Below, one piece after another: positions 7,330 through 54,015 of a stretch of 64,000 nucleotides of DNA. Below the pieces are notes generated by a model that worked only from the letters and a program-made list of their open reading frames with translations, had not been told where the DNA came from and did not search any database. The DNA lies in contig CAYVCX010000002.1 of the NCBI GenBank assembly GCA_964450435.1, positions 43,760 to 107,759 of the forward strand, written 5' to 3'. The stretch comes from an uncultured Anaerolineales bacterium. Lineage in GTDB: Bacteria > Chloroflexota > Anaerolineae > B4-G1. The position numbers and the translations under genes are program-made. How positions within the stretch are numbered: the first letter of the stretch is position 1; each line of letters begins with the position of its first letter.

Positions 7330-7734
7330 ATGAGAGCCGAGCTATCGGCAGAGAGAATACGTGGGCGTTTCGTGCAGCTGGTTGAGGAGATCAGCGGTCA
7401 GGATCTCCTGGCCTGCAACCAGTGCGGCAAGTGCAGCGCTGGATGCCCCATTGTAGGCACGATGGACATCCTGCCCAGCCAGGCCATCCGAATGGCGCAG
7501 TTGGGTATGGAGGACGTGCTGGAGACGACCACCATATGGATCTGCGCTTCCTGCCTGACGTGTGTCGCGCGCTGTCCCAAGGGGGTCGATCTGCCCCGAC
7601 TGATGGAGGCCCTGCGCCAGACTGCATTGCGCAAAGGGGTCGCGAAGTTGGATCTAAACGCTCTCCCTCAGGAGCTGTTGCGCGAGCTGCCTCAGCTGGC
7701 GATCATCGGGGGATGCAGGAAGTACATAAAGTAA
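7330..7734 (+). CDS. hdrC: Heterodisulfide reductase subunit C-like (2x[4Fe-4S] ferredoxin)
   Basis: Two CxxCxxCxxxCP motifs (CNQCGKCSAGCP and CASCLTCVARCP). A GGAGG RBS precedes the ATG at 7330. It is followed by hdrB. Confidence 0.75.
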   Translation: MRAELSAERIRGRFVQLVEEISGQDLLACNQCGKCSAGCPIVGTMDILPSQAIRMAQLGMEDVLETTTIWICASCLTCVARCPKGVDLPRLMEALRQTALRKGVAKLDLNALPQELLRELPQLAIIGGCRKYIK

Positions 7735-7795
7735 ACCTGTGTGTCTGGTGGTCAATCGGTAAACATATGTGGCCGCAAAATCTTGGAGCTAGTTA

Positions 7796-8662
7796 ATGGG
7801 CATTCCCTACTTTCCAGGCTGTACGCTTTCGACCAAGGCGAAGAACTACGACCGCTCGGGCAGAGCGGTAGCGAAAGCGCTGGGGTTGGAGCTTGAGGAG
7901 CTTCCCGAGTGGCAGTGCTGTGGAGCCACGTTCCCGCTTATGCTCGACGACTCGATGGCTCTCATCGCACCCACGCGCATCCTGTATCAGGCTCAGCAGG
8001 CCGGTGAGCGTGTGACCACTCTCTGCTCTGTGTGTTTCAACGTGCTGCGCCGCTCCCAGGCACTGCTGGGGCGCGACGAGGAGATGCTGGATCGCATCAA
8101 TTGGTTCACGGAGCAGGAGTATCACGGCGACGTAGTTGTGTCGCATTTTCTCGAGGTGCTTCGCGACGATCTGGGCTGGGACGAGGAGCCCGGTTCTCTG
8201 GCCGAACACGTGAGACGGCCCCTGACGGGGTTGAAGGCTGCTCCCTACTACGGCTGCCTTCTCCTGCGTCCATACGACGAGATCGGCCTCGACAATCCGG
8301 AGGACCCGCGCATTCTTCACGACCTCTTGCGGGCCCTCGGCGCCGAGCCGGTGGACTTCCCGTTCAACATCGAGTGTTGCGGCTCCTATCTGATGGTCAA
8401 GGATCCCGATGTCCCGGAGTCGCTCTCCACGGAAATCGTCGCTTCGGCCAGAGAACACGGCGCCGATGTGGTGGTCACTGCCTGTCCGCTCTGTCAGTTC
8501 AATCTCGACTACCCACAGCGGGAGACGGTGGGCAGTCGTGCGGGGAGCCGGATCCCCGTGGTCTACTTCACGCAGCTAATGGCAGTAGCTCTGGGGCTGC
8601 CGGAGGAGACGTGGGGGTTTGAAGACCATTACGTGGACCCGAAACCACTGTTTGACGAGTAG
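7796..8662 (+). CDS. hdrB: Heterodisulfide reductase subunit B-like (two CCG cysteine-rich domains)
   Basis: CCG domain signatures are present (CCG..., CPLCQ) and the N-terminus YFPGC is typical of HdrB. Confidence 0.8.
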   Translation: MGIPYFPGCTLSTKAKNYDRSGRAVAKALGLELEELPEWQCCGATFPLMLDDSMALIAPTRILYQAQQAGERVTTLCSVCFNVLRRSQALLGRDEEMLDRINWFTEQEYHGDVVVSHFLEVLRDDLGWDEEPGSLAEHVRRPLTGLKAAPYYGCLLLRPYDEIGLDNPEDPRILHDLLRALGAEPVDFPFNIECCGSYLMVKDPDVPESLSTEIVASAREHGADVVVTACPLCQFNLDYPQRETVGSRAGSRIPVVYFTQLMAVALGLPEETWGFEDHYVDPKPLFDE

Positions 8663-11023: not shown

Positions 11024-14000
11024 ATGAGCGACAACAACGGATCTCTCAGGACTGAAGCAAAGTCTGCCGGAAGCGACGCCGTCCTGGTTGTCGGTGCCGG
11101 CATTGGTGGTATGCAGTCAGCCTTGCTTCTCGCTGAAACCGGACACCAGGTCTACCTGCTGGATAGCTCTCCCGGCATCGGGGGCTCGATGCATCTGCTG
11201 GACCGCACGTTCCCCACCGATTCGTGCGGCATTTGCCTGATGCTGCCGGGACGGGCGGCGTATTGCCCCACCATCGAGTGTGATCTTCACGCAAACATCC
11301 AGATTCTTGCTTATGCCGAGGTAGAAGATGTGGCGGGCGAGGCCGGGAGTTTCACGGTCACGGTGCGCCGCAAACCGCGCTACGTGGACGTTGAGCTGTG
11401 TAACAACTGTGGTCTCTGTGCTGAGGTCTGTCCCGCGGACCTTCCCCACCAGTACGAAGGAACTGTGGCACCGCAGAAGGCGATCTACCAGCCGCCCATC
11501 CGCGCCATTCCGTCCACCTACGTCATCGACATGGATTACTGCACCCGCTGCGGCGAGTGCGTCGCGGTGTGCCCCATTGAGGCTGTCGACCTGGAGATGG
11601 CCGAGACCCAGGAGCAGATCCAGGTGGCGGCCGTGGTGATGAGCCCGGGCTACGAGCCCTTCGACGCGGGCGTCAAGGGGGAGTACGGTTTCGGGCACTA
11701 CGACAATGTTCTATCGAGCATCCAATTTGAGCGCATGATCAGCATCTCTGGCTCCACCGGGGCGGATATCGTGCGGCCATCCGATGGTGAGTCGCCGCAG
11801 CGGGTCGCTTTCATCCAGTGCGTCGGGTCCCGGGATTCCTCTATTGATCGCGGCTACTGTTCCTCAGTCTGCTGCATGTACACCGCCAAGCAGGTGCAGG
11901 TCGCCAAGAGGCTCGATCCCGACCTCGATGTGACGGTCTTCTTCATGGACATCCGTGCCCACGGCAAGGACTTCGACGAGTATTTTGATCAGGTGGAGGC
12001 GATGCCGGGCGTGAACTATCGCCGTGCGATGGTCTCCTCGGTCCACGAATACAAGCAGACGGGCGACCTGCAGCTCAACTTCGTCGGAGAGGACGGGACG
12101 GTCCGTGAGGAGGATTTCGACATGGTAGTGCTCTCGGTGGGCTTCGAGCCTCCCCAGGGCTTCCGGGATCTGGGCCAGGCCTTGAACGTCGATTTGAACC
12201 GCCACGGCTTTGGCCAGTCGGACACGTTCCATCCCGGTGAAAGCTCGCAGCCGGGCATCTTCGTCAGTGGCGCTTTCCGGGAGCCCAAGGACATCCCGGA
12301 GACCGTCGTCGAGGCCTCGGCCGTCGCAGCCAGCGCTGCTCGCCTCCTGGAGCAGGTCCGGGTTCCCTCTGGCGTGCCGGCGAAACCTGTGCCCAGCGTT
12401 GACACTCAGCCCGAGGAGCGGGACGTCAGCCGCGAATGGCCCCGCGTGGGCGTCTTCCTGTGCGACTGCCGGGGAGAGGTTGGCTCGGTGGTCGACCTGC
12501 AGGATGTCTCCGAGTACGCGGGGGGCCTCCAGGACGTGGCCCTGGTACAGGCCATGGATAATGCCTGCCTGTTGAGCGGCCGCGAGCAGATTCTCCAGGC
12601 GATCGAGGAGGCCGAGCTCAATCGTGTGGTGATCGCGGGTTGCCCTGCCCGGGAGTATCAATCGGTCTTCGAGGATCTGATGCGTGGTGCGGGTCTGAAT
12701 CCTGCCTTGATGGAGCGAGTCAATCTCCGCGGCGAGATAGCCTGGGTTCATCAGGGGAATGGGACGCACGCTACTGCCAAGGCCAAAGAGCTGGTCCACA
12801 TGGCCGTCGCCGGCGTCCGGATGGACCAGCCGATCTACTTCGAAGATCAGGAACTCTCGCAGCGAGCCTTGGTAGTCGGCGGGGGGCTGGCCGGAATGAC
12901 GGCTGCCCGTAGCTTGGCGCAGATGGGCCACGAGGTGGACCTGGTGGAGGCCTCAAGTGAGCTCGGCGGACAACTGAACGAGCTGCGCTATCTGCCCACC
13001 GGGGAGGATCCTGTGGCATTCACCACCTCGCTCATCGAGGCGGTGGAGAGCGCCAGCCAAATTCACATCTACCGCGACGCTCAGATCGACGGGGTCTCCG
13101 GCTGCGTCGGGCAGTATCAGACGAACCTGGCCCTGGCCGATGGAGACCGCGAGACGCTGCGCCACGGCGTGCTCATCGTGGCCACCGGCGGGCAAGAGGT
13201 TGTTCCGACCGAGTATTTGTACGGAGAGAGCCCCCAGGTGGTCACCCAGCGAGAGCTCGAGAAGCTGCTGGAGGCAGATGGGGATGTACCCTCCGATGTG
13301 GTGATGATTCAGTGTGTCGGCTCGCGAGAGCCTGAACGTCCCTACTGCAGCCGCATCTGTTGCACCAAAGCCGTCTCCAATGCGCTCCGCATCAAGGAGC
13401 GCAATCCGGATGCGCGGGTGTTCGTGCTCTACCGGGAGATGCGTACCTACGGTTTCCGCGAGGACTACTACCGGGAGGCGCGCGAGAAGGGCGTGATCTT
13501 CCTCCGCTATGAGCTGCCCGACAAACCCCGGGTCGCGGCGGGTGACGGGCAGTTGAGCGTCCGGCTTCGGGAGCCGGTCACCGGCGAACAGGTGGACCTG
13601 CAAGCCGACATGCTTGTGTTGAGCACGGGGATCGATCCCCATGACGTGGGCGACCTTGCTCGCATGCTCGATGTGTCGCTGGACAAGAACGGGTTCTTCC
13701 AGGAGGAATACCCCAAGATGCGGCCCCTCGATTTCACGAAGCGGGGTATCTTTATGTGCGGACTGGCGCACTCGCCGCGATTCCTGGACGAGACCATCGT
13801 GCAAGCGCAGGGCGCGGCCATGCGTGCCGCTGCGTTGCTCCAACAGCAGACGTTGCAGGCCCCGGTGCCTCCGGTCCTGGTGAATGAGCGCCTGTGCACC
13901 GCATGCGGCCAATGTGTCGAGATCTGTCCCTACGGGGCCCGCGTGCTCGAGGCCGGGGCCCATACGGCCGAGGTGATCGAGGTGCTGTGTCAGGGTTGCG

Positions 14001-14092
14001 GTGCCTGTGTTGTTGCCTGCCCGAACAAGGCCACGCGGCGGCAGGGCGCCGAGATTTCCAGCGTGTATCGCATGCTGGAGTCAGTCGCATAG
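11024..14092 (+). CDS. hdrA: Tandem HdrA-like flavoprotein (1022 aa). N-terminal half is an FAD domain with the Cys-rich motif; C-terminal half has an N-terminal Cys-rich Fe-S domain, an FAD-like domain with a degenerate motif, and a C-terminal 2x[4Fe-4S]
   Basis: GxGxxG motifs at residues about 23 and about 616. Motif DRTFPTDSCGICLMLP in the first half versus LNELRYLPTGED in the second. Motif VFLCDCRGEVG marks the N-terminal Fe-S domain, and ferredoxin motifs lie at the C-terminus. Confidence 0.8.
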   Translation: MSDNNGSLRTEAKSAGSDAVLVVGAGIGGMQSALLLAETGHQVYLLDSSPGIGGSMHLLDRTFPTDSCGICLMLPGRAAYCPTIECDLHANIQILAYAEVEDVAGEAGSFTVTVRRKPRYVDVELCNNCGLCAEVCPADLPHQYEGTVAPQKAIYQPPIRAIPSTYVIDMDYCTRCGECVAVCPIEAVDLEMAETQEQIQVAAVVMSPGYEPFDAGVKGEYGFGHYDNVLSSIQFERMISISGSTGADIVRPSDGESPQRVAFIQCVGSRDSSIDRGYCSSVCCMYTAKQVQVAKRLDPDLDVTVFFMDIRAHGKDFDEYFDQVEAMPGVNYRRAMVSSVHEYKQTGDLQLNFVGEDGTVREEDFDMVVLSVGFEPPQGFRDLGQALNVDLNRHGFGQSDTFHPGESSQPGIFVSGAFREPKDIPETVVEASAVAASAARLLEQVRVPSGVPAKPVPSVDTQPEERDVSREWPRVGVFLCDCRGEVGSVVDLQDVSEYAGGLQDVALVQAMDNACLLSGREQILQAIEEAELNRVVIAGCPAREYQSVFEDLMRGAGLNPALMERVNLRGEIAWVHQGNGTHATAKAKELVHMAVAGVRMDQPIYFEDQELSQRALVVGGGLAGMTAARSLAQMGHEVDLVEASSELGGQLNELRYLPTGEDPVAFTTSLIEAVESASQIHIYRDAQIDGVSGCVGQYQTNLALADGDRETLRHGVLIVATGGQEVVPTEYLYGESPQVVTQRELEKLLEADGDVPSDVVMIQCVGSREPERPYCSRICCTKAVSNALRIKERNPDARVFVLYREMRTYGFREDYYREAREKGVIFLRYELPDKPRVAAGDGQLSVRLREPVTGEQVDLQADMLVLSTGIDPHDVGDLARMLDVSLDKNGFFQEEYPKMRPLDFTKRGIFMCGLAHSPRFLDETIVQAQGAAMRAAALLQQQTLQAPVPPVLVNERLCTACGQCVEICPYGARVLEAGAHTAEVIEVLCQGCGACVVACPNKATRRQGAEISSVYRMLESVA

Positions 14093-14139
14093 AGATTGAC
14101 CAATAGAGCTGGTCGAGGTTTTCTTGGAGGAGGACGAAC

Positions 14140-20247: not shown

Positions 20248-20252
20248 AGACC

Positions 20253-20951: not shown

Positions 20952-20968
20952 AGGAGGATTAGGAACCC

Positions 20969-33536: not shown

Positions 33537-34958
33537 ATGATGATGGCGATAAGAGAGCGCGTAGAGACGAGGACGCTGGCGGAGGAGGTCAAGCATCACA
33601 CCGGCTCGAACCCCTATCTGTGCTATCAGTGTGTGAAGTGCTCCAGCGGATGCCCGGTCGCGGAGCATATGGATCTGCAGCCTCACCAGGTGATGCGGTC
33701 CATCCAGTTCGACGACGAGAAGGTCCTGGAAGCCAGGACGCCCTGGGTATGCGCCGCGTGTGTCACCTGCACCACCCGCTGCCCACAGGGGATCGACGTG
33801 GCTGGCGTGATGGACGTGCTGCGTATCGAGGCGCGCAAGCACGGGATTGAACCTCCGCTGCGCGAGGTAGAGCTGTTCACCCAGGTCTTCCTGCGCATCA
33901 TTGGCGCCACGGGGCGCCTGTATGAGGCCGGCCTCATGGCAGCGATGAATATGCTGACACTGCAACCGCTGAAGGACATGGATCTCGGTGTGCAGATGAT
34001 CCTCAAGCGCAAGATCGGCTTCCTGCCCGACTTCGCTCGTCCTCCCAAGAACGTCCGGCCGGCAGAAGTGGATGACAAGACCATCGCCTATTACCCGGGG
34101 TGCTCCCTGGAATCCACGGCTACCGAGTTCGATCATACCTTCAAGGCTGTGTGCGAGGCACTAGATCTGAAGTTGGTCGAGCCCCCGGGTTGGATCTGCT
34201 GCGGCTCCACCCCGGCTCACACCACCGACTCCGTGCTGGCCGCCTACTACGCCATTCAGAATCTCTCCATTGTCGAGAGGATGGGACTGGACCAGATGGT
34301 GGCACCCTGCCTGGGCTGCTATCAGCGCTTTCTGGCCGCCGCTCGCGAGATAGAACGCGACCCGGAGATAGCCGAAAAGGTGGCGGAGAGGATAGGATAT
34401 GAGTATCAGGGTAGCGTCAAGACGCTCCACTCCGTCGATGCTCTGTTGAAGCGCGTCGGCCTGGAGAAGATTCGCGAGCAGGTGAAGAGACCGCTGGAAG
34501 GGATGAAAGTGGCCTCCTACTATGGGTGTGCGACGACCCGTCCTGCCACGCTGACCGGCGCGGAACACGTGGAGTACCCCATGTGTATGGATGACATTGT
34601 CCGCGCCTTGGGGGGCGAGCCCGTAGACTGGTCTTACAAAACCGACTGTTGCGGAGGGAGCCTGGGAATTACCCAGACCGACGTGGCACTGGAGCTTTCC
34701 GCCAAGATCCTCGAGAACGCCGAGGCCTGCGGAGCCGACCTCATGATCACTGCGTGCCCCTTGTGTCAGGTCAACGTCGAGAGCCGCCAGATGCAGATGG
34801 ACCTGGGCTTCGACCTGCCGGTGCTCTACATCACCCAGTTGATGACCCTGGCTTTTGGCATGGGCGAGAAGAAGGCGGAGCTGAGCAAGCAGATTATCGA
34901 TGCCCGTCCGGTGTTGCGAGAATACGGATTACTGACGTCGGTTGAGGCATCTTCATAG
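33537..34958 (+). CDS. hdrD: Fused HdrC-HdrB (HdrD-like) heterodisulfide reductase subunit
   Basis: N-terminal motifs CYQCVKCSSGCP and CAACVTCTTRCP, then YYPGC followed by two CCG domains. Confidence 0.8.
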   Translation: MMMAIRERVETRTLAEEVKHHTGSNPYLCYQCVKCSSGCPVAEHMDLQPHQVMRSIQFDDEKVLEARTPWVCAACVTCTTRCPQGIDVAGVMDVLRIEARKHGIEPPLREVELFTQVFLRIIGATGRLYEAGLMAAMNMLTLQPLKDMDLGVQMILKRKIGFLPDFARPPKNVRPAEVDDKTIAYYPGCSLESTATEFDHTFKAVCEALDLKLVEPPGWICCGSTPAHTTDSVLAAYYAIQNLSIVERMGLDQMVAPCLGCYQRFLAAAREIERDPEIAEKVAERIGYEYQGSVKTLHSVDALLKRVGLEKIREQVKRPLEGMKVASYYGCATTRPATLTGAEHVEYPMCMDDIVRALGGEPVDWSYKTDCCGGSLGITQTDVALELSAKILENAEACGADLMITACPLCQVNVESRQMQMDLGFDLPVLYITQLMTLAFGMGEKKAELSKQIIDARPVLREYGLLTSVEASS

Positions 34959-35619
34959 GAGGGCGAACGTGCTAGTCAAAGACTTGATGACACCTGATCC
35001 GATATGTGGACGGCCGGACATGGTGGTCACCGAGATCCAGAAGCTGATGAGCCATAACAACATACGCCACGTGCCCGTCGTGGACGAGGCCGAGCAGCTG
35101 ATTGGCCTGGTCACCCAGCGTTCTCTCTTCAGTGCGCTGCGCACAGAAGAGAGTGACCTCAGCCAGTTCGAGGTCAGTTACATCCTCGCGAAGATCCAGG
35201 CTCAACACGTGATGGTCGAGGACGTCATCACCATCGAGCAGGATGTGCCGGTGGAGGAGGCGGCTCGCGTGATGGCGGACCGGCGGATTGGCTGCTTGCC
35301 GGTGATGGGAGAGGGTGAGTTGGTCGGCATCATCACCGACAACGACCTGTTCAATGCGATGTTGAACTTGCTGGGGGCGCGGCGCTCCGGTGTTCGCCTG
35401 GTCGTCCTCCAGCCGGATCGCACGGGCGAGGTGGCTCGCTTGACCAACGTGATTGCCGAACAGGGAGGCTATCTGTCGGTCTGCGCTGGCTATTTTCCCG
35501 AGGACGCACCCGGTTCCTGGGCTTCTGTCGTGAAGGTTACTAACCTGTCAGAAGACGAGTTGGTGAGCCTCATCAATCGTCAGGATGAGATGCAAATCGT
35601 GGACGTGCGAGAGGTGTGA
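34942..35619 (+). CDS. CBS-domain pair plus ACT-domain protein
   Basis: Tandem CBS motifs (VKDLMTPDP ..., GCLPVMGEGELVGIITDNDL) and a C-terminal ACT-like region. The start may be the GTG at 34969, which follows an AGGAGGG RBS. Confidence 0.6.
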   Translation: MRHLHRRANVLVKDLMTPDPICGRPDMVVTEIQKLMSHNNIRHVPVVDEAEQLIGLVTQRSLFSALRTEESDLSQFEVSYILAKIQAQHVMVEDVITIEQDVPVEEAARVMADRRIGCLPVMGEGELVGIITDNDLFNAMLNLLGARRSGVRLVVLQPDRTGEVARLTNVIAEQGGYLSVCAGYFPEDAPGSWASVVKVTNLSEDELVSLINRQDEMQIVDVREV

Positions 35620-35667
35620 TCGCCTGCTTGAAGGCGGGCACGGCCTGAACCAGGGGAGGCACGGCGT

Positions 35668-36201
35668 ATGCCCGAAGCCATCTATATGAGAGAAGCGCGG
35701 AGGCTCCCGGGCAGCGAGTGGATCAAGGACCACCCGAAGCCCCTGGAAGCGTTCTACAGGCTTACCAAAAAGGTAGTCGTTCGGGTGTACCCGCTGATGA
35801 GGCGGGTTAGCCCGACGCTCTCCGAGCGCACGCTGGCGTGGGGGGAGAAGATCGTGAAGGGATGGATCTTCAACTGCCAGATGTGCGGTCAGTGCGTTCT
35901 ACATAGCACGGGCATGACGTGTCCTATGACCTGTCCCAAGAAGCTGCGCAATGGTCCCTGTGGCGGCGTTCGCCACAATAACCACTGCGAGGTCATCCCC
36001 GATAGGCTTTGTGTCTGGGTCCAGGCCCGGGAGCGCAGCCAGGCCATGCGATACTATGCTGACGACATGCGCATCGTCCAGCCGCCGGTCAACCATGCGC
36101 TGGAGTCCATGTCCGCCTGGGCCAATATGGTCGAGGGTCGCGACACGGATGTACCGCCTGGATGGGCCGTGGCTGCGCGTGCTGAAGAGGCTGACGGATG
36201 A
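35668..36201 (+). CDS. metV: Second MetV-like protein (MTHFR C-terminal-domain family)
   Basis: Motifs CQMCGQC and CPMTCPKKLRNGPCGG parallel the first MetV. It overlaps the following metF-like gene by 4 nt (ATGA). Confidence 0.65.
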   Translation: MPEAIYMREARRLPGSEWIKDHPKPLEAFYRLTKKVVVRVYPLMRRVSPTLSERTLAWGEKIVKGWIFNCQMCGQCVLHSTGMTCPMTCPKKLRNGPCGGVRHNNHCEVIPDRLCVWVQARERSQAMRYYADDMRIVQPPVNHALESMSAWANMVEGRDTDVPPGWAVAARAEEADG

Positions 36202-37184
36202 GCAACACCTTGTCGTCTTGCCAGCGGTCAATGCGTTCGAGTAGCCGGTTGGAGCGGGCGCTGCGGTCTGGTCGTTTCGCTGTCACCGCTGAGTTGAATG
36301 CACCTGACAGCGCCGACCCCCAGGATGTCTACCGGAACGCGCTGGTGCTCTCCAAGTGCTGCCACGCCATTAACGCCACCGATGGCGCTGGCGCCAATTG
36401 CCACATGAGCAGCATCAGCTGTTGCGCGCTCCTTACCCGTGCGGGCTATGAGACGGTGCTTCAGGTCAATTGTCGCGACCGGAATCGCATTGCTATCCAA
36501 GGCAACTTGCTCGGCGCCGCCGCTATGGGGGTCAAGAACGTGCTCTGCATCACAGGCGATGACGTCTCCGTGGGTGATCAACCCGGTGCCAAGCGCGTCT
36601 TCGATATGGATTCAATCCACCTGCTTCGCACCGCCCGCATGATGCGCGATCATGGCGTCTTCCTCAGCGGACGTCGCATCACGACGCCACCGCGCCTCTT
36701 CCTCGGAGCGGTTGCCAGTCCTTGCGCGCCGCCCTATGATTGGCGTCCAGAGCGATTGGCCAAGAAGGTGGAGGCCGGGGCCGATTTCATTCAGACGCAG
36801 TTTTGCTTCAACGTGGAGCGCTTCAGAGAGTACATGCAGCGGGTGCGCGACCTGGGGCTCCACGAGCGCGCCTTTATCCTGATTGGTGTCGGCCCATTGC
36901 GTTCAGAGAAAGCTGCTGAGTATATGCGCACCAAGGTCCCGGGTGTGTGGATCCCCGATCAGGTCGTGGATCGAATGGCTCGAGCGTCCGAATCGCAGAA
37001 GCGGGAGGAAGGCATCCGCATTTGCGTGGAGATCATCCAGCAGGTCCGAGAGATCGAGGGGGTTCACGGCGTGCACGTGATGGCATATCGCCAGGAAGAG
37101 GCTGTGGCAGAGATCATCGAGCGTGCCGGTATTCTGCCAACCGGGGAATTCGAGGCGGGCGTCTGTGGACCGGATGAGTCTTAG
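36198..37184 (+). CDS. metF: Second MetF-like methylenetetrahydrofolate reductase paralog
   Basis: Motifs INATDG, CRDRNR, LCITGD. The 328 aa length is identical to MetF at 32541. Confidence 0.75.
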   Translation: MSNTLSSCQRSMRSSSRLERALRSGRFAVTAELNAPDSADPQDVYRNALVLSKCCHAINATDGAGANCHMSSISCCALLTRAGYETVLQVNCRDRNRIAIQGNLLGAAAMGVKNVLCITGDDVSVGDQPGAKRVFDMDSIHLLRTARMMRDHGVFLSGRRITTPPRLFLGAVASPCAPPYDWRPERLAKKVEAGADFIQTQFCFNVERFREYMQRVRDLGLHERAFILIGVGPLRSEKAAEYMRTKVPGVWIPDQVVDRMARASESQKREEGIRICVEIIQQVREIEGVHGVHVMAYRQEEAVAEIIERAGILPTGEFEAGVCGPDES

Positions 37185-39987: not shown

Positions 39988-40872
39988 ATGGACAATCTGA
40001 CTGAGTCGTTTGTTGAGTTGATCCGTCGAGCGGCCACAGATCTCCCGTCCGACGTCGAGGGCGCCCTGCGCGAGGCCCGGGAACGTGAGGCGTCCGGGTC
40101 GGCCGCGCAGGGCGCGCTGAACACGATCCTGGAGAACGTGGTTATCGCGCGGGAGAACAGCACGCCTATCTGTCAGGACACCGGTGTTCCCATCTTCTAT
40201 GCCTACGTGCCCGCGGCAGATCATCCGGCGTCCATCAGCACCCGCCACCTCCAGGAGCAAATCGAAGCCGCCGTCGCGGAGGCCACCGGGCGCGCCTACC
40301 TACGCCCCAACGCCGTCGATCCCGTCACCGGACGCAACAGCGGCAACAACCTGGGAAACGGCTTTCCTGCTTTCCACTTCCAGGAGTGGGGCGAGGACTA
40401 TCTCAAGGTCGACCTGCTCCTCAAGGGTGGCGGCAGCGAGAACGTCAGCACGCAGCTCAAGCTGCCGCATGCGCCACTGGACGCCGGCCGGGATTTGGAC
40501 GGCGTCCGCAAGGTCGTGCTGGATGCCATCTACCGGGCCCAGGGCAAGGGGTGCGCCCCGGCAGTGCTCGGCATCGCCATCGGCGCCGACCGCGGTAGCG
40601 GCTACGTCCACGCCAAGGAGCAGTTGTTCCGTCCCCTGGACGACGCCAATCCGCAGCCCCAGCTGGCTGAGTTGGAGGAACGGCTGCTGCAGGAGTGCAA
40701 TGAGCTGGGTATCGGCTCCATGGGCTTCGGCGGGAAGACCACCGTCTTCGGCGTCAAGATCGGCGCCTATCACCGCCTTCCGGCCTGTTATTTCGTCAGC
40801 ATCGCCTACATGTGCTGGGCCTGCCGGCGGGCAAGAATGACCGTGCGCGGGGGGGAGGTGAGGTTCCAATGA
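39988..40872 (+). CDS. fumA: Class I (Fe-S) fumarate hydratase / L(+)-tartrate dehydratase alpha subunit
   Basis: Motif PICQDTGVPIF, typical of Fe-S hydro-lyase alpha subunits. Confidence 0.8.
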   Translation: MDNLTESFVELIRRAATDLPSDVEGALREAREREASGSAAQGALNTILENVVIARENSTPICQDTGVPIFYAYVPAADHPASISTRHLQEQIEAAVAEATGRAYLRPNAVDPVTGRNSGNNLGNGFPAFHFQEWGEDYLKVDLLLKGGGSENVSTQLKLPHAPLDAGRDLDGVRKVVLDAIYRAQGKGCAPAVLGIAIGADRGSGYVHAKEQLFRPLDDANPQPQLAELEERLLQECNELGIGSMGFGGKTTVFGVKIGAYHRLPACYFVSIAYMCWACRRARMTVRGGEVRFQ

Positions 40873-41522
40873 GCGCGTTCGAGTTGACCGTCCCGATCTC
40901 CGAGGAGGACGTGCGCTCGCTTCACGTCGGCGACACGGTCCGTCTGTCCGGCGTCATCGTGACCGGGCGGGACGCGGCGCACAAGTATGTGACCGAAACC
41001 TTTATGCGTCCGTCGAAAGGCTCAGAGCAAGGTCCTCTGACCGTCCCCGAGAGCGAGCGCGAGCTGTACCAGGAGTTGAAGCGCCTGCTCCAGGGGAGTG
41101 TGATCTACCACTGCGGCCCCGTGGTCCGCCAGCGCGAGGATGGACGCTGGGAGTTCGTCGCCGCAGGGCCGACCACGTCCATCCGTGAGGAGGTCTACGA
41201 GCCCGGTGTCATCAAGCACTTCGGGCTCCGGGGTGTCATCGGCAAGGGCGGCATGGGACCCGACACACTGCGCGCCTGCCGTGACTACGGTGCGGCCTAC
41301 TTCCACGCCGTCGGCGGGGCGGCCTCTCTCATTGCTGATGCTGTCAAAGAGGTCCTCGCCGTGCACAAGAAAGAGGAGTTCGGCGTGCCCGAGGCCTTCT
41401 GGGTCATCCGCGTGGAGGACTTCCCCCTGGTAGTCACCATGGACACCCACGGGGAGAGCATCCACGACCAGGTCGAGGCGACGTCGAAAGCCGCTTTGGA
41501 TCGACTGGTAGCCGGCCCTTGA
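40869..41522 (+). CDS. fumB: Class I fumarate hydratase beta subunit (C-terminal catalytic domain)
   Basis: Follows the alpha subunit with a 4-nt overlap. A GGGAGGTG RBS precedes the ATG at 40869. Fe-S hydro-lyase beta family features. Confidence 0.7.
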   Translation: MSAFELTVPISEEDVRSLHVGDTVRLSGVIVTGRDAAHKYVTETFMRPSKGSEQGPLTVPESERELYQELKRLLQGSVIYHCGPVVRQREDGRWEFVAAGPTTSIREEVYEPGVIKHFGLRGVIGKGGMGPDTLRACRDYGAAYFHAVGGAASLIADAVKEVLAVHKKEEFGVPEAFWVIRVEDFPLVVTMDTHGESIHDQVEATSKAALDRLVAGP

Positions 41523-41545
41523 CCACGATCGAGGTGACAGGCAGG

Positions 41546-41610
41546 GCATGCTTCCGGGAAGCTATGCTGATCATCAACGCCAGGTGCTCCGGATCCGCCT
41601 CGCTGGCGTT
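41546..41610 (+). promoter_or_regulatory. Palindrome GCATGCTTCC-G-GGAAGCTATGC followed by an 8-bp-stem hairpin (AACGCCAG ... CTGGCGTT) at the start of a 413-bp non-coding gap
   Basis: Read directly from the sequence. This is the largest intergenic gap in the metabolic block, between fumB and korD. Confidence 0.3.
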
Positions 41611-41935
41611 CATCGCCAGAAGCAGCCGTCGGGCTTGCACGAGAATGCTGAGCAGAGCATCGACACAGGGCAGGAGGTAGGCCTGGCCGCACCAGCCGGA
41701 ACACGCAGACGGGGAGCCAGATTGTCCCCAGGCTGTGTGGGACGCAGTTGCCCCGGTGTCGGTTCTGTGGCAGAATGTCTGTGGCGGTTGTCGCTCCCGG
41801 TATGCTCCTTTGCTGAATAGGGTCAGCCAGAGCATATCGCGAGCCACCTGTCTCGAGAAGTGCGCGGCGGTGAACGCTGGTTTCCTGGCTTGGCACAGTG
41901 CTAACCCATCGTCCGACCTACGTACCAAGAGCCAA

Positions 41936-42211
41936 ATGAAATACTGGAGAGAACCACTTGACCTGAAAGACATCCGCGTCCCTCATGGCGAGATCCACGT
42001 GCTGGTGGAGCGCTGCAAGGGCTGCGGCTGGTGCGTTGAGTTCTGCCCCCGCGATGTATTAGAGGTCTCGGATGAGATCAACAGCAAGGGCTATCACCCA
42101 CCGAGGACGGTACGCCCGGAGGTCTGCGTCAGTTGCGGCCTGTGCGAGTTGCTCTGTCCTGAGTTTGCTATCTACGTCGTGGAGGAGGAAGGCGAGGTGG
42201 TGATACTGTGA
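41936..42211 (+). CDS. korD: 2-oxoacid:ferredoxin oxidoreductase delta subunit (2x[4Fe-4S] ferredoxin)
   Basis: Motifs CKGCGWCVEFCP and CVSCGLCELLCP. It is immediately upstream of korA, with a 4-nt overlap. Confidence 0.7.
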   Translation: MKYWREPLDLKDIRVPHGEIHVLVERCKGCGWCVEFCPRDVLEVSDEINSKGYHPPRTVRPEVCVSCGLCELLCPEFAIYVVEEEGEVVIL

Positions 42212-43410
42212 GCAAGGAGAACCAGGACCAGAACGGCGTGCTGTCAGGCGAGTTCTTCATGCAGGGGGACATTGCCTGCGCCGAGGGGGCTATCTGCGCT
42301 GGTTGTCGGTTCTTCGGTGGCTATCCGATTACGCCGGCCACCGAGGTGGCGCAGCGCATGAGCGAGCGCCTGCCGCTGGTGGATGGGATGTACATCCAGA
42401 TGGAGGATGAGCTGGCCTCGATCGGCGCGGTATTGGGGGCCTCCTGGGCCGGCGCGAAGGCTATGACGGCGACCAGCGGGCCAGGTTTCTCGCTGATGAT
42501 GGAGAACCTGGGCCTGGGCATCATGCTCGAGACGCCCTGCGTACTGATCAACGTTCAGCGCGGTGGTCCCTCCACTGGCCTGCCGACGCTTGCCGGTCAG
42601 GGGGACATGATGCAGGCCCGCTGGGGATCGCACGGGGACTATTCCATCATCGCGTTGGCGCCGTCCTCCCCGCAGGAGCTGTTCGACCTGACCATTCATG
42701 CCTTCAATCTCTCCGAAATCTACCGCACACCGGTGCTGGTGATGACTGACGCTGAGGTGGGGCATATGACCGAGAAGGTGGTCATTCCGCCGGCCGAGGA
42801 GATCGAGATTGTGGAGCGGCGGAAGCCCACGGTGGGGCCGGACGAGTACCGACCCTACTACGTAGAGTCGGGTGAGTGGGTGCCACCCATGGCTTCGGCC
42901 GGCGATGGGTATCACATCCACGTTACCGGTCTTACTCACGACGAGCGAGGCTATCCTGTCACGAGCGACGACAGCGCCCAGTGGCCGCTGGTGCAGCGGC
43001 TCATCGGAAAGATCGAGGAAAATAAGGATGACATCATAATCTTGGAGGAGGAGGGATTGGATGATGCCGAGGTGATCCTGGTATCCTACGGCATAGCCGC
43101 CCGCACATCTCTCTGGCCGATCCAGATGGCTCGCGAAGAGGGTATCCGGGTGGGGTTTCTGCGATTGGTGACAGTCTGGCCTTTCCCGGACAGGCACATC
43201 CGCACGCTGGCCGCACAGGTGAACGGGCTTGTCGTGCCGGAGATCAACATGGGACAGATCGTCCGCGAGGTCGAGCGCTGCGCTGCGGGCCAGGCAGAGG
43301 TGTTCCCGGTCTCCCACCCGGGCGGAGGCATCCACGACCCCCAGCAGGTGTTGAGCACCATTCGCGAGGCTGCGCGGTCTGGTGAGGAGACGCGACCGGC
43401 GTCCCAGTAG
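42208..43410 (+). CDS. korA: 2-oxoacid:ferredoxin oxidoreductase alpha subunit
   Basis: N-terminal motifs of Por/Kor alpha domain I (GNEA-like ACAEGAICAG, YPITPATE). Confidence 0.8.
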   Translation: MSKENQDQNGVLSGEFFMQGDIACAEGAICAGCRFFGGYPITPATEVAQRMSERLPLVDGMYIQMEDELASIGAVLGASWAGAKAMTATSGPGFSLMMENLGLGIMLETPCVLINVQRGGPSTGLPTLAGQGDMMQARWGSHGDYSIIALAPSSPQELFDLTIHAFNLSEIYRTPVLVMTDAEVGHMTEKVVIPPAEEIEIVERRKPTVGPDEYRPYYVESGEWVPPMASAGDGYHIHVTGLTHDERGYPVTSDDSAQWPLVQRLIGKIEENKDDIIILEEEGLDDAEVILVSYGIAARTSLWPIQMAREEGIRVGFLRLVTVWPFPDRHIRTLAAQVNGLVVPEINMGQIVREVERCAAGQAEVFPVSHPGGGIHDPQQVLSTIREAARSGEETRPASQ

Positions 43411-43424
43411 ATGGAGGCATAGCG

Positions 43425-44324
43425 ATGGTCTCGGAGACGAAGCACGATCCGCTGCCCAGCACGTTGGAGACAGACGGAAGGTCCCAGGGGTTGGACGAGG
43501 AGATTCACGGACGCCATCCGCTGGATGATCTGCTGCGCACCGAGCGTCTGCCGCACATCTGGTGTCCTGGCTGTGGGTTGGGGACGTCCTTGACCTGCTT
43601 CCTGAGTGCGCTGCGCAAATCGGAGCTGGATCTGGAGAAGACGGCTGTGGTCTCGGGAATCGGGTGCACCGGGCGGGTGGCGGGTTACGTCAAGTTGGAT
43701 TCCTTCCACACCACCCACGGGCGGGCCATACCCTTCGCCACCGGCCTGAAGCTGGGTAACCCGGAGTTGAAGGTGATCGTATTCTCCGGCGATGGCGATC
43801 TGGTGACCATTGGCGGCAATCACTTCATCCACGCTGCACGGCGCAACGTCGACTTGACCGTCATCTGCATCAACAACTTCAACTACGGGATGACGGGCGG
43901 CCAGGTCGGGGCGACGACACCCGTCGGCAGCATCACTACCACCTCACCGTACGGCAACTATGAGTACCCATTCAACGTTTCGGCCCTGGCGGCCTCGAGC
44001 GGCGCTGTGTATGTGGCGCGCTGGACGGTGCTCCACGCCCGGCGCCTGGAGCGCGCGATGACTGAGGCGTTGCTCAAACCGGGGTTCAGCCTGGTGGAGG
44101 TGATCTCGCCCTGCCCCACCGGGTTTGGTCGCCGTCACAGGCAGCGTGAGGGCCTGGACACGCTGCGGTACTATCGCGAGCACGGCGTGATCGATCACGA
44201 TGCTGACCTGCGCAGCGCGGACATCGGGCTGGGCAGCTCCTTCGTCGAGGGCAATTTTGTGAACATCGATAAGCCCACGTTCTTGGAGCAGCGGTCGGAG
44301 TGTTTGGCGCAGGCGCTGAAGTAA
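43425..44324 (+). CDS. korB: 2-oxoacid:ferredoxin oxidoreductase beta subunit (TPP-binding)
   Basis: Motifs WCPGCG and GDGD of the TPP-binding domain. Confidence 0.85.
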   Translation: MVSETKHDPLPSTLETDGRSQGLDEEIHGRHPLDDLLRTERLPHIWCPGCGLGTSLTCFLSALRKSELDLEKTAVVSGIGCTGRVAGYVKLDSFHTTHGRAIPFATGLKLGNPELKVIVFSGDGDLVTIGGNHFIHAARRNVDLTVICINNFNYGMTGGQVGATTPVGSITTTSPYGNYEYPFNVSALAASSGAVYVARWTVLHARRLERAMTEALLKPGFSLVEVISPCPTGFGRRHRQREGLDTLRYYREHGVIDHDADLRSADIGLGSSFVEGNFVNIDKPTFLEQRSECLAQALK

Positions 44325-44416
44325 CTCCGGTTCCGGGTCGGGCATGGCAGCTCGACCCGGGCTGGGTGAACATGCCTGAGTCGGCGTAGGGGGAGCTTGC
44401 AGGCAGGAGGCAAAAG

Positions 44417-45022
44417 TTGAATCGTCTGGAGATACGGCTGTCTGGTTTCGGTGGACAGGGGATTATCCGCAGCGGAGAGATCGTGGGCAGAGCGGCGACT
44501 CTCTACGACGGAAGGTATGCCACTTTCACGCAGAGCTACGGGCCGGAGTCCCGGGGCGGCGCTTGTGCGGCCCAGGTAATCATTGCCGATGATCCGGTGG
44601 AATTGAGCTATCCACACCTTGTGGATCCCGCGATTCTAATCATCATGTCGCAGGGGGCATATAATAAGTACGTCCCGGGCTTCCGGCGAGATGGGCTGCT
44701 CATCGTGGACGAGGAGCTGGTGGACCTGGACGAGGCGGCCGAGCACCTGCGCGTGATTGGCATCCCGGCCACGCGCCTGGCCGAGAGTCTGGGACGCCGC
44801 ATCGTGGCAAACGTGGTGATGCTGGGTTTCGTGGCCGCGATGACCGATATCGTCTCGGCGGAGGCTATGAAGAAGGCCGTGCTTGATTCGGTTCCGGAGG
44901 GGACGGAGGAGCTGAACACGCGCGCGTTTGAGGCGGGATTCGAGTATGCGCGGAAGCAGGGCTCGATAGACGACGTCGGGCGCAAAGACGATACCGAACG
45001 TAGCGCGCAAGGCGCGAAATGA
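44417..45022 (+). CDS. korC: 2-oxoacid:ferredoxin oxidoreductase gamma subunit
   Basis: Motif FGGQG at the N-terminus. TTG start after a GCAGGAGG RBS. Confidence 0.75.
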   Translation: MNRLEIRLSGFGGQGIIRSGEIVGRAATLYDGRYATFTQSYGPESRGGACAAQVIIADDPVELSYPHLVDPAILIIMSQGAYNKYVPGFRRDGLLIVDEELVDLDEAAEHLRVIGIPATRLAESLGRRIVANVVMLGFVAAMTDIVSAEAMKKAVLDSVPEGTEELNTRAFEAGFEYARKQGSIDDVGRKDDTERSAQGAK

Positions 45023-51335: not shown

Positions 51336-51405
51336 AGGGCAGGAATCACGCGAGGGGATATGGCTGGTCCGTAGGCAGTCCCTCTCGTGTTGAGGAGGTG
51401 CGACA

Positions 51406-54015
51406 TTGGGCGATAACGAGCTAGAGAGAGGCGACGCTGTCCGCATCGGCGTCTTCGTCTGCGACTGCGGCCTGAACATCGCTGGCAGCGTGGACACCGC
51501 CGCCGTGCGAGAGTATGCTGAGTCTCTGCCGGACGTGACGGTGGCGGTGCGCAATCGCTACACCTGCGCCGATCCCGGGCAGCAAGAGATCAAGCAGACG
51601 ATCGTGGAGCACAACCTCAACCGGGTGGTGGTCGCTTCCTGCTCGCCCCGGCTCCACGAGCCCACCTTCCGGCACTGCGTGAGTGAGGCAGGCCTCAATC
51701 CCTACCTGTTTGAGATGGCCAACATCCGCGAGCACTGCGCCTGGGTCCACCTCCAGGATCGCGAGGCGGCCACGCGCAAGGCCAAGGATATCGTCCGGGT
51801 GGCCGTGGCTCGCGCCCGCTGGCTGCACGCTCAGGACGAGGAGCGGTTTCCAGTCACCGACGCAGCGCTGGTCATTGGCGGAGGCGTCGCCGGCATCCAG
51901 GCTGCCCTCGACCTGGCCGATGCCGGTCACCAGGTCTACCTGGTGGAAAAAGAACCGTCCATCGGGGGGATCATGGCGCGACTGGACAAGACGTATCCCA
52001 CAATGGACTGTAGCATATGAATCCTCGGCCCCAAAATGATGGATGTCGGTCGACATCCAAAGATCGAATTGATGGCCTACAGCGAGGTCGAGGACGTCTC
52101 CGGCTACGTCGGTGATTTCAGGGTGCGGGTACGGCGAAAAGCCCGCTATGTCGATGAGGCCGAATGCACCGCCTGCGGGGACTGCTCCGACGTCTGCCCC
52201 GTCGTCATGCCGGATGGGTTTCAGGCCGGCCTCTCCACCCGCCGGGCGATCTACATCCCCTTCCCCCAGGCCGTCCCCTCGTCCTACATCGTCAACGCGG
52301 ACGAGTGTCTGGGCAGCAACCCGATCGCCTGCGGTAAGTGCGTCGAAGCGTGCGACAAGCAGTGCATCGATTTCGATATGCAGGATGAGATCGTGGAGCT
52401 GCAGGTGGGCGCTGTCATCGTTGCCACCGGCATGGAGACCTACGATCCCACGCCCCTGGACGAGTACGGCTACACCAGCTACGAGAATGTGGTCACCAGC
52501 CTGGAGTTTGAACGACTGATCTCGGCGGAGGGGCCGACCGAGGGGCATTTCGTTCGGCCTTTGGATCGAGAGCAGCCCCGGCGCGTCGGCTTCGTGCAGT
52601 GCGTCGGCTCGCGAACCTTGCCCTCGCAATCGAACCCCGAGGGACAGCGCGGCAACCCGTACTGTTCCAACATCTGCTGCATGAACACTGTCAAGGACAG
52701 CCTGCTGCTCAAGGATCATTACCCGGACACGGACATCACGGTCTTCTACATGGACATCCGCGCCTTTGGCAAGGGCTTTGAAGATCTCTATCGGCGCTCG
52801 AAAGCTCAGGGCGTCCGCTACATCCGCGGCCTGCCGGGCGAGGTGGAGGAGGATCCGGGGACGGGGAATCTCACCGCGTACGTAGAGAACACCACCACCA
52901 GCCTCCTGGAGGAGCACGAGCTGGACATGCTGGTGCTTTCTATAGGCGCTGTTCCCCGAACGGAGACCGATCCGGTGCGCCAGCTTCTGACTCTGTCCGT
53001 CAGTGAGGATGGCTTTCTGATGGAGGCTCATCCCAAGCTGAAGCCGGTAGACACCCCGACTAAGGGGGTCTACATTGCCGGCTGCGCAGAGGCGCCCAAG
53101 GACATCAAGGACTCGGTCACCCAGGCGAGCGCGGCCGCCGCGCGCGCCGAGGTGCTGCTCAACGCGCCGCAGATCGCGGTGGAGGCGATCACGGCTGTGG
53201 TGGACGAGGATCTGTGCAAGCAGTGCGGGCAGTGTGCCGAGGTGTGCCCCTTCTCGGCCATCGTCTGGGAGAAGAAGCAGACAGCCCGCGTCATCAGTGC
53301 AGCGTGCGCTGGCTGCGGCACCTGCGCCGCGGAGTGCCGCTTCGATGCCATTACGATGCGGCACTTCACCGATCAGCAGATCTACGCTATGGTCGACGCC
53401 ATTCTGGATGACGACCCGGTGGACAAAGTGGTCGCCTTCGCCTGCAACTGGTGCTCGTACGCCGGCGCCGACACAGCCGGTACGTCGCGCCTGCAGTATC
53501 CTCCCAACGGCTATGTCATCCGCACCATGTGCTCCGGGCGTGTCAAGCCAGACTTCGTGTGGCATGCCTTCCAGAAAGGAGCGCCCGTCGTGCTGGTATC
53601 AGGTTGTCATTACGCTGATTGTCACTACATCGACGCCAACCGCAACGCGGTGCGCCGCGTGGACGCACTGTGGGAAGGACTGGAGAAGCATGGCGTCGAC
53701 CCACGGCGGCTCCAGCTTGATTGGTGCAGCGCGGCCGAGGGGCAGAAATGGGCCAGGATCATGCGGGAGCTTGAGGGTCTGCGGGCCGGCGTGACAGATG
53801 AAGAAGTTGAGGAGGCCAGGGATGCGCTGAAGGGCCAGCGAGTGCCCCGCCGCAGCGAAGTCTGGCGGCTGAAGGGGCCAACCGCGGCCAGTATGATCTG
53901 CTATCGCTGCGGCAACGAGTGGGAGGACACGTTCGACCCGTCCGCCGACCGGGAGCGGATGTGCCCGTCCTGCCGCAGCAACAGCGTGCGGGTGCTGCCG
54001 GACGGGAGGGAATAG
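51406..54015 (+). CDS. hdrA: HdrA-MvhD fusion with an in-frame TGA (52018-52020) at the second Cys of the DKTFPTxDCxxCIL motif; putative selenoprotein (869 aa if read through). Also carries a C-terminal zinc ribbon
   Basis: Listed ORFs 51406-52020 and 52036-54015 share a frame with no other stop. The local sequence is DKTYPTMDCSI-[TGA]-ILGPKMMDVG. A SECIS-like hairpin with a GGTC apical loop lies 20 nt downstream. The C-terminal 200 aa is an MvhD domain (FACNWCSYAGADTAG, GCHYADCHY). TTG start after a GAGGAGGTG RBS. Confidence 0.65.
52041..52058 (+). promoter_or_regulatory. SECIS-like hairpin GGATGTC-GGTC-GACATCC downstream of the in-frame TGA
   Basis: A perfect 7-bp stem with a GGTC apical loop, the same loop sequence as the E. 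coli fdhF SECIS. Read directly from the sequence. Confidence 0.45.

Follow-up and report, generated by a model that had tools for sequence, protein, structure and literature searches.

In the MvhAGD-HdrABC complex of methanogens (PDB 5ODC), the structural reference for the heterodisulfide reductase (Hdr) family used here, the N-terminal-domain cluster of one HdrA protomer is ligated by Cys197 of the other (PMC9012536). Related gene sets have been described as MetFV-HdrCBA-MvhD in Moorella thermoacetica and as hdrA-mvhD-metVF-hdrCB in marine Anaerolineae (Sewell et al. 2017, PMC5736913), in Desulfobacterium autotrophicum HRM2, which possesses HdrL and 15 Hdr paralogs (PMC2702500), and in the archaea ANME-1 (Chadwick et al. 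2022, PMC9012536). The subject of the present analysis is a run of Hdr genes at positions 7330-54015 of a 64,000-nucleotide stretch of DNA ("the window") from an uncultured Anaerolineales bacterium (assembly GCA_964450435.1, contig CAYVCX010000002.1). The run is probably a conserved, co-oriented redox island that encodes about six soluble Hdr-type complexes among genes of the Wood-Ljungdahl methyl branch and of a partial reductive tricarboxylic acid (TCA) branch, the latter consisting of fumarase, a fumarate-reductase-like pair and a 2-oxoacid:ferredoxin oxidoreductase (OFOR). Its components and design principles have already been published, and it is a rich example rather than a new kind of system. 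What is new is the concentration of about six Hdr sets in a single conserved, Wood-Ljungdahl-linked Anaerolineae island, the order of the fused HdrA halves, hints of a repeated origin of HdrA asymmetry, and a candidate fumarate-linked Hdr complex.

HdrA modules and their probable pairing

Profile searches against Pfam and NCBIfam, together with the listing of open reading frames (ORFs), identified in the interval 7330-54015 eight HdrA-like genes, four free MvhD genes and one MvhD domain fused to gene g46, three HdrC/HdrB pairs and three fused genes with one Fer4 and two CCG domains (HdrCB- or HdrD-like). Hdr and MvhD genes occupy 29,442 of the 46,686 nt (63%), a density that cannot be due to chance. 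All 49 genes from 27 to 57963 are encoded on the + strand, with intergenic gaps of at most 226 nt and several overlaps. In an earlier reading of the DNA, made without database searches (the sequence-only reading), these genes had been listed, and every coordinate given there matches an ORF with the claimed domains. Its headline count of four HdrB and four HdrC needs revision, to three of each plus the three fusions. The Hdr and MvhD genes are as follows.

7330-7734, + strand: HdrC1, with two CxxCxxCxxxC motifs
7796-8662, + strand: HdrB1, with two complete CCG motifs; best NCBIfam match SdhE/HdrB-like
from 9519 and from 10151, + strand: HdrC2 and HdrB2, a pair ahead of g12
11024-14092, + strand: g12, fused S-L double HdrA, 1022 aa
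14140-15465, + strand: g13, HdrA-S, 441 aa
15569-16774, + strand: g14, HdrD-like 1, fused Fer4 and two CCG domains, 401 aa
16836-18602, + strand: g15, HdrA-L, 588 aa
18660-19088, + strand: g16, MvhD1 (PF02662)
22592-25801, + strand: g20, fused S-L double HdrA, 1069 aa
25794-26252, + strand: g21, MvhD2 (PF02662)
26340-30845, + strand: g22, HdrL, 1501 aa, S-type HdrA interrupted by an NfnB/GltD-like domain, with an L-type HdrA fused to it
30894-31370, + strand: g23, MvhD3 selenoprotein (PF02662), in-frame TGA at 31101-31103
33537-34958, + strand: g27, fused HdrC-HdrB, 473 aa (Pfam Fer4 and two CCG)
45062-46405, + strand: g40, HdrA-S, 447 aa
46402-48168, + strand: g41, HdrA-L, 588 aa
48175-48633, + strand: g42, MvhD4 (PF02662)
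48642-49799, + strand: g43, HdrD-like 2, fused Fer4 and two CCG domains, 385 aa
from 49864 and from 50403, + strand: HdrC3 (g44) and HdrB3 (g45)
51406-54015, + strand: g46, canonical HdrA with MvhD (residues 675-789) and a C-terminal Cys4 ribbon, 869 aa

All-against-all BLASTP and alignment to the HdrA chain 5ODC_A of Methanothermococcus thermolithotrophicus revealed 11 HdrA FAD modules in the eight genes, with g12, g20 and g22 as double modules. The FAD motif GxGxxG and the four cysteines of the cluster in the TrxR domain (C386/C399/C403/C404-type) are retained in 11 of 11. The domain set defined by the structure (N-terminal cluster, TrxR-like FAD domain with Cys197, inserted and C-terminal ferredoxin domains) is complete in g46, which matches 5ODC_A with 799 bits over residues 4-652 before the MvhD domain and the Cys4 ribbon follow. 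The other ten modules contain the full set only jointly, as pairs of two types. S-type modules (g13, g40 and the N-terminal halves of g12, g20 and g22) keep the DCxxC motif with Cys194/Cys197 and the inserted two-cluster ferredoxin domain; L-type modules (g15, g41 and the C-terminal halves of g12, g20 and g22) keep the N-terminal and C-terminal Fe-S domains and lack Cys194/197 and the inserted domain. Since Cys197 of the methanogen enzyme ligates the N-domain cluster of the partner protomer, one S and one L module would rebuild exactly one complete unit. The alignments are best read as one canonical HdrA alongside five pseudo-heterodimers of an S and an L module, with three of the five joined covalently; this predicts about six complexes and not eight. 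The six HdrA dimer equivalents are matched by six CCG-domain proteins and five MvhD domains. In the double modules S precedes L, so that the Cys197 half comes first. The L half of g12 (12404-14092) lacks the fifth conserved N-domain cysteine and reads EIAW instead of EHCSW.

The same complementary loss of Cys197 or of the N-terminal domain, in tandem genes or in fused polypeptides, has been described for ANME-1, where a NfnB-like insertion of about 500 aa and a larger number of HdrA than of HdrBC copies are also found (Chadwick et al. 2022, PMC9012536). The proposal that Cys197 and the N-terminal domain complement each other in this manner was made there for the HdrA of Moorella as well. However, in ANME HdrA3/4 the half with the N domain is described as coming first, whereas here S is followed by L, in a bacterial host.

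The remaining subunits retain nearly all of their expected cluster ligands. Two complete Cx(31-40)CCx(35-38)CxxC motifs are present in five of the six CCG proteins (HdrB1-3, g27 and g43), and in g14 the first motif has four of its five cysteines, the fifth being missing. Every HdrC protein and HdrC-like domain contains two CxxCxxCxxxC motifs, and the five conserved cysteines occur in all five MvhD domains. In a scan for hydrophobic segments no island protein displayed a segment typical of a membrane helix, which indicates that the complexes are soluble.

Two genes are broken by an in-frame TGA where the paralogs carry a ligand cysteine: MvhD3 at 31101-31103, in the context VAG-U-LEGECHY (the MvhD motif GCxxxCHY), and g46 at 52018-52020, in the context DCSI-U-ILGPK, which is the Cys197 position of HdrA. 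Across the fetched homologous loci the MvhD site is occupied by a stop codon in 44 cases and by cysteine in 66, and the HdrA site by a stop codon in 18 and by cysteine in 100; gene callers split the g46 ortholog at the same TGA in two other assemblies (L082, L084). Judged by these contexts, both TGA codons encode selenocysteine. Selenocysteine at Cys197 of HdrA and in an MvhD/VhuD homolog is known in Methanococcales. A hairpin downstream of the TGA was predicted with z = -2.3 at 52018 and with z = -0.7 at 31101, the latter no better than in shuffled sequence, and an Rfam scan of the window yielded no match, neither to a riboswitch nor to a SECIS family. The two codons do not appear in the account given by the sequence-only reading.

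Conservation and descent of the island

Relatives were collected by scanning one genome per GTDB species with the 1501-aa g22; from more than 590 relatives 80 loci were kept, of which 77 contain full-length HdrL, 73 MvhD and 46 MetF. The closest relatives of g22 reside in metagenome-assembled genomes (MAGs) of Anaerolineae (87-91% amino acid identity), and orthologs with 44-50% identity are common in Desulfobacterota MAGs. The HdrL-MvhD-MetVF unit occurs also in MAGs of Desulfobacterota, Nitrospirota, Spirochaetes and Gammaproteobacteria. When all proteins of the window were compared by tBLASTn with the relative loci, the order g13-g22 was found to be kept in three of them (L002, L011, L081) and the order from g20 through the OFOR genes (g20-g39) in another (L006). 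The g17-g21 set is kept in five loci (L002, L011, L026, L081, L086), the adjacency of OFOR and HdrA in three (L082, L084, L087), and the g40-g43 set across Anaerolineae and in a Desulfobacterium MAG (L060). Orthologs of the g12 set are plentiful in Anaerolineae, at 58-82% identity. In GCA_034718315.1 (86% identity) and GCA_041082215.1 (70%) the genes for OFOR, HdrA-S, HdrA-L, MvhD, HdrD, HdrC, HdrB and HdrA with selenocysteine follow each other in the same order, and in GCA_024232355.1 the entire island is contained in one 84-kb contig, along with extra Hdr sets and NuoEFG-like genes. A comparison of synteny had been suggested by the sequence-only reading, and the gene order does recur in several independent Anaerolineae MAGs. 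In more distant Anaerolineae (L012, L016, L018) the g20 ortholog lies almost directly after AcsE/FolD, from which it follows that the block g7-g19 is a lineage-specific accretion.

Variants of the island were noted in several relatives. In GCA_024232355.1 (L086, 67-79% identical) NuoE-, NuoF- and NuoG-like genes lie at 13092-17487 between the g12 ortholog and an HdrD-like gene; they are preceded by a 144-aa fragment of an HdrA N terminus, possibly a gene call cut short by a selenocysteine codon. An additional HdrCB-S-L set directly after AcsE in the same locus indicates that the island is plastic. In several Anaerolineae MAGs (L004, L010, L016, L017, L018, L052) metVF is preceded by two HdrL-MvhD(Sec) copies in tandem, both with 54-66% identity to the window protein.

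The descent of the modules was examined in neighbor-joining trees computed from 305-314 shared core columns with a simple distance model. A deep L clade comprises g41 and the L halves of g12, g20 and g22 (100% support), and an S clade comprises g40 and the S halves of the same three genes, with 94% support when relatives were added and 24% in the tree of the window alone, in which the grouping is limited to the three fused S halves (100%). The canonical clade contains g46 and 5ODC_A (70-93%). By contrast, g15 clusters with its own partner g13 (88-92%) despite its L architecture; its core is 58% identical to that of g13 and 34-40% identical to those of the other L modules. The extra S435/L567 pair of GCA_024232355.1 (L086, 4115-7129) likewise groups with itself (97%). 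With this simple distance method, asymmetric S/L pairs seem to have originated on three or more occasions through duplication and complementary domain loss; in this respect g13/g15 and the extra pair of the relative, which appear to be of independent origin, differ from ANME-1. Most modules are members of old clades with orthologs in other phyla, and only g13/g15 look like a lineage-level duplication. The sequence-only reading had spoken of an extreme paralog expansion. The paralogs are real and strongly diverged, but local duplication was not borne out, as most of them fall into old clades represented in other phyla. Its description of the Hdr density as unusual holds against methanogens and model acetogens, but not against D. 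autotrophicum (15 paralogs, PMC2702500), ANME-1 (PMC9012536) or the organism's own relatives, one of which carries more HdrA modules than the window.

Partner modules and possible electron routes

The genes that surround the Hdr sets and supply their candidate partners are listed below.

27..7223, + strand: AcsD fragment, AcsC, RACo, CooC, AcsE and FolD of the Wood-Ljungdahl pathway, directly upstream (Pfam CdhD, RACo, CbiA, Pterin_bind, THF_DHG_CYH)
from 19135, upstream of g20, + strand: g17 FdhB/FrhB-like, g18 FrdB-like, g19 TfrA/FrdA-like
from 31848, ahead of g27, + strand: g25 MetV1 and g26 MetF1 (Pfam DUF5981/MTHFR_C and MTHFR)
34942..37184, + strand: CBS-domain protein, MetV2 and MetF2, a second, diverged MetVF set (Pfam)
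39988..45022, + strand: fumarase alpha/beta, then OFOR delta, alpha, beta and gamma (Pfam)
55644-56636, + strand: [NiFe] hydrogenase small subunit, MvhG-like (PF01058)
56590-57963, + strand: [NiFe] hydrogenase large subunit, MvhA-like (PF00374)

The insert of g22 (approximately residues 155-640) resembles NfnB and GltD, with 307-308 bits to Thermotoga NfnB and Pyrococcus NfnI-L; Fer4_20 and Pyr_redox_2 were recognized at residues 161-549 inside HdrA, and the PRK12771 score of 544 bits exceeds the cut-off of 516. With an mvhD gene 48 nt downstream, g22 is by its domain order HdrL as defined by Strittmatter et al. 2009, namely HdrA combined with an NAD(P)H domain of the glutamate-synthase-small-subunit type and followed by mvhD. 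This fusion is shared with D. autotrophicum HRM2 and Syntrophobacter fumaroxidans (PMC2702500, PMC5947623), as are the large number of paralogs, the selenocysteine forms of HdrA, HdrL and MvhD, the FdhB-like genes beside hdrA and the association of HdrAL with POR. The hdr genes of HRM2, however, occupy nine separate loci and have a link to sulfate respiration (hdrL1 is followed by dsr genes), whereas those described here form one 47-kb co-oriented Wood-Ljungdahl island in a member of the Chloroflexota.

HdrL, MvhD, MetV, MetF and HdrCB (g22, g23, g25, g26 and g27) run consecutively with gaps of 3-132 nt, which completes the Moorella-type gene set, and the order g22-g27 is the same in Anaerolineae, Desulfobacterota, Nitrospirota and other MAGs. 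Of the features of the Moorella-type enzyme, a hexamer with NADH-dependent activity, the genes display the NAD(P)H domain in the form of the NfnB-like insert. The set equals that of Moorella and of the marine Anaerolineae clusters, and with the latter it shares the fused hdrCB and a second, diverged metVF; MetF1 and MetF2 are 46% identical, compared with 42.8% in DscP3 (PMC5736913). The large HdrA of Moorella is also a fused double module (Chadwick et al., PMC9012536). In contrast to these systems, HdrA occurs here in the 1501-aa HdrL form with the NfnB-like insert, MvhD is a selenoprotein, and the unit lies inside a far larger run of Hdr genes. For MetF1 no solved relative was found at E <= 1e-10. 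The gap between mvhD3 and metV1 contains a small ORF (31374-31715) with a borderline match to a 23S rRNA intervening-sequence protein (34.7 bits, cut-off 33.8). L003 and L006 leave no space for an ORF at this site, so that the small ORF looks like an insertion specific to this genome.

The genes g17-g21 are tightly packed (gaps of -25 to +17 nt). g17 has its nearest counterparts in the FdhB subunits docked to Hdr in the Fdh-Hdr structures of methanogens, g18 is FrdB-like with one [2Fe-2S] and two [4Fe-4S] motifs and no CCG domain, and g19 is closest to TfrA/SdhA (TfrA 342 bits, cut-off 718). Among the four proteins searched g19 is the best conserved, and its best 120 matches all belong to Chloroflexota (78-89% identity). 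Fumarate-reductase-like and OFOR genes among hdr genes are also a feature of TfrAB and of the korABCD/tfrAB/flx-hdr clusters of Gammaproteobacteria that use the reductive TCA cycle (PMC6315080). However, TfrB combines FrdB-like clusters with two CCG motifs whereas g18 has no CCG half, the Tfr cut-offs are not reached, and the neighbors are an FdhB-like flavoprotein, a fused S-L HdrA and MvhD rather than flxABCD. The CCG half of TfrB is what g14 and g43 resemble most. It is conceivable, although we regard it as doubtful, that g17-g21 (19135-26252) encode a hitherto uncharacterized soluble, flavin-based enzyme whose high-potential acceptor is fumarate instead of the heterodisulfide, namely an electron-bifurcating fumarate reductase or a succinate dehydrogenase of the confurcating type. 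In that case the island as a whole would amount to a natural collection of HdrA cores fitted to different acceptors, with asymmetric S/L dimers that evolved at least three times.

The g40-g43 genes, spaced by -4 to +8 nt, adjoin the OFOR genes, and the fumarase/OFOR genes that precede them echo the HdrAL/POR locus of Syntrophobacter. Between the gene for a C39-like peptidase and fumarase lies a gene (38964-39917) for a 317-aa protein with no Pfam match, which is kept at the same place in L003 (71%) and in L082/L083.

Downstream of g46, the [NiFe] hydrogenase large subunit has MvhA as its best solved relative (5odc_F, 204 bits). Group 3c hydrogenases linked with hdr genes have been reported in Anaerolineae, and the placement of the hydrogenase in the window agrees with these reports. 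Together with g44-g46 the hydrogenase shares with MvhAGD-HdrABC a four-domain HdrA, MvhD, HdrC, HdrB and the MvhA-like subunit. Unlike in the methanogen system, the host is a bacterium, MvhD is fused to HdrA, an extra Cys4 ribbon follows at the C terminus, and hdrA and the hydrogenase genes have an aminotransferase gene between them. Moreover, every Hdr protein of the island stays below the equivalog cut-offs that NCBIfam sets for the methanogen enzymes, with scores of at best 535-933 bits for HdrA2/HdrA (cut-offs 1100-1400), of 158-252 for HdrB (345) and of 63-110 for HdrC (160). By these scores they are members of the family and not orthologs of the CoB-CoM reductase, and CoM-S-S-CoB is not expected as the substrate. 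The large subunit has the His of DPCIACATH as its last residue (57790-57963), which means that it has no C-terminal extension for processing by an endopeptidase, and its Ni ligand is Cys, not Sec.

Homology and gene adjacency suggest how the subunits may assemble, which substrates they may use and that they may bifurcate electrons. In each complex an FAD core equivalent to an HdrA dimer would link a donor of medium potential with both ferredoxin and an acceptor of high potential. The S half would contribute the Cys194/Cys197 motif and the inserted ferredoxin domain, so that S and L together would form one bifurcating unit instead of two. The MvhD [2Fe-2S] proteins would serve as input adaptors, and HdrBC, the HdrD-like CCG proteins or a substrate module as the high-potential outlet; a disulfide at the CCG clusters is a further candidate acceptor. 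In one route, electrons from NAD(P)H would pass through the NfnB-like insert of HdrL to the reduction of methylene-tetrahydrofolate (methylene-THF) by MetFV and the fused HdrCB. In another, the FdhB-like flavoprotein, the S-L HdrA and MvhD would drive fumarate reduction at the TfrA/FrdB-like pair, and in a third H2 would be oxidized by the Mvh-like [NiFe] hydrogenase and the electrons delivered through HdrA-MvhD to HdrB3C3. Adjacency points to no identifiable substrate module for two S+L+MvhD+HdrD sets, the one next to OFOR among them, or for the set of HdrC2B2 and an S-L HdrA. The pay-off of such complexes would be the coupling of exergonic reductions to the making or consuming of low-potential ferredoxin for CODH/ACS and the oxoacid synthase. 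All partners named in the sequence-only reading (MetFV, the GltD/NfnB-like insert, the FrdAB-like pair, the FdhB/FrhB-like protein and the [NiFe] hydrogenase) do adjoin HdrA modules. Its proposal of multiple distinct bifurcating complexes stands insofar as different modules adjoin different partner genes; the eight genes, however, would give about six complexes, and bifurcation is deduced from homology.

Beyond the hydrogenase genes the character of the DNA changes. From 57964 to 62620 the G+C content rises to 68-69% and the GC skew turns negative; long ORFs without a Pfam match run on both strands (57674-59011 +, 57867-59054 -, 59538-60941 -, 60989-62620 -), an MFS transporter (59736-60956 +) is the only recognizable gene, and the coding strand is ambiguous in places. 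A gene resembling AbiEi-type antitoxins and transcriptional regulators (62465-63298; PF09407, HTH_IclR) at the right edge marks the end of the metabolic island. No tRNA gene was detected with ARAGORN.

Alternative readings and significance

It is extremely improbable that the density of Hdr genes reflects a misassembled or duplicated contig or very recent, undiverged tandem copies. The sequence does stem from a metagenome-assembled genome, and repeated motifs were detected between the copies. However, the repeat search revealed no long DNA repeats, only short stretches of conserved motifs of which the best is 83% identical over 69 nt. The paralogous proteins are 21-59% identical in all-against-all BLASTP and fall into separate old S, L and canonical clades in the neighbor-joining trees, and orthologs with 70-91% identity occur in the same order in independent assemblies. 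Repeat search, paralog identity and synteny in independent MAGs together exclude an assembly artifact or a recent duplication, the two circumstances that, according to the sequence-only reading, would have undone its claim. A second alternative, which we consider improbable, assigns the S/L sets to one of the named systems: QmoAB(C) with APS reductase, BamDEF of the class II benzoyl-CoA reductase, FlxABCD-HdrABC or the sHdr system of sulfur oxidation. The fused double HdrA with selenocysteine MvhD-like partners recalls BamE/BamF of the Geobacter Bam cluster and supports this assignment. In addition, an S module of about 440 aa with an L module and MvhD mirrors the short and long HdrA-like flavoproteins QmoA and QmoB, of which QmoB bears an MvhD-like domain (PMC3333476), and benzoate oxidation has been predicted from related single-cell genomes (Sewell et al., PMC5736913). 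NCBIfam matches to g13 and g15 included no QmoA/QmoB model, and Qmo membership was judged by QmoC and gene context. A membrane QmoC, which joins a heme-b domain to an HdrC-like domain, was not found: the matches to the qmoC model are partial (33-81 bits, cut-off 300) and without transmembrane segments, and a soluble HdrD-like CCG protein stands in its place. Neither aprAB, sat nor dsr genes were found in the 64-kb window, nor was a BamB-type tungsten aldehyde oxidoreductase (AOR family), flxABC, lbpA or dsrE. The window likewise encodes no Flx-type NAD(P)H-flavoprotein, its sole NAD(P)H module being the g22 insert. The match to the HdrA of sHdr (6tjr) is weak, with 104 bits, and the neighbors of the S/L sets are C1 and TCA genes.

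The more serious alternative, which nevertheless seems unlikely, is that the complexes do not bifurcate. Electrons would then run along linear chains, for example from H2 or NAD(P)H to fumarate or methylene-THF, or the complexes would act as a respiratory methylene-THF reductase associated with the membrane, and the asymmetric HdrA would have lost bifurcation. In support, each accessory domain is kept by only one half of an S/L pair, such that one of the two FAD sites may be purely structural. The reaction of the characterized MetFV-HdrABC-MvhD is debated, with bifurcation to an unidentified second acceptor under discussion (PMC5736913, PMC6085437), and no demonstration that the Moorella enzyme bifurcates has yet involved a physiological second acceptor (PMC6085437). 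MetVF-MvhD-HdrCBA of Sporomusa ovata has been tied to a membrane electron-transport chain, and a membrane-linked respiratory role is proposed for it (PMC9430772). Against linear chains, all modules retain the FAD motif and the adjacent [4Fe-4S] ligands, each pair possesses both ferredoxin-type branches, the NfnB-like insert has homology to a subunit already known to bifurcate, the island encodes no membrane anchor, and the canonical g46 set is close to a structurally proven bifurcating enzyme. The reading as an island of about six soluble Hdr-type complexes draws on gene content, the complementarity of domains and ligands, old divergence, conserved synteny and the selenocysteine sites, all of which the analysis shows. 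Besides the debate on MetFV-Hdr and the proposal for S. ovata, several points weigh against it. The complexes are known here solely from the genes of an uncultured organism, and the partners were assigned by adjacency. Neither HdrC1B1 nor the g12 set is accompanied by an obvious MvhD or substrate module. With scores below the equivalog cut-offs, the Hdr proteins give no indication of which thiol or disulfide, if any, would be their substrate, and the simple distance model limits what the trees say about descent. Scans over 6-64 kb for promoter and terminator consensus sequences gave counts no higher than those in shuffled sequence and thus no basis for operon boundaries.

Hdr-type complexes are a main route by which energy-starved anaerobes obtain low-potential ferredoxin, but outside the methanogens their substrates and partners are mostly not known, and the second acceptor of the MetFV-Hdr enzyme of acetogens is one of these gaps. 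The picture of Anaerolineae as organisms that depend on bifurcation and the Wood-Ljungdahl pathway is left unchanged by the present locus. What the island adds is a single conserved locus, in a lineage abundant in sediments, where about six differently wired HdrA cores stand beside their probable partners. It thereby offers concrete operons for heterologous expression and illustrates how HdrA dimers turn asymmetric.

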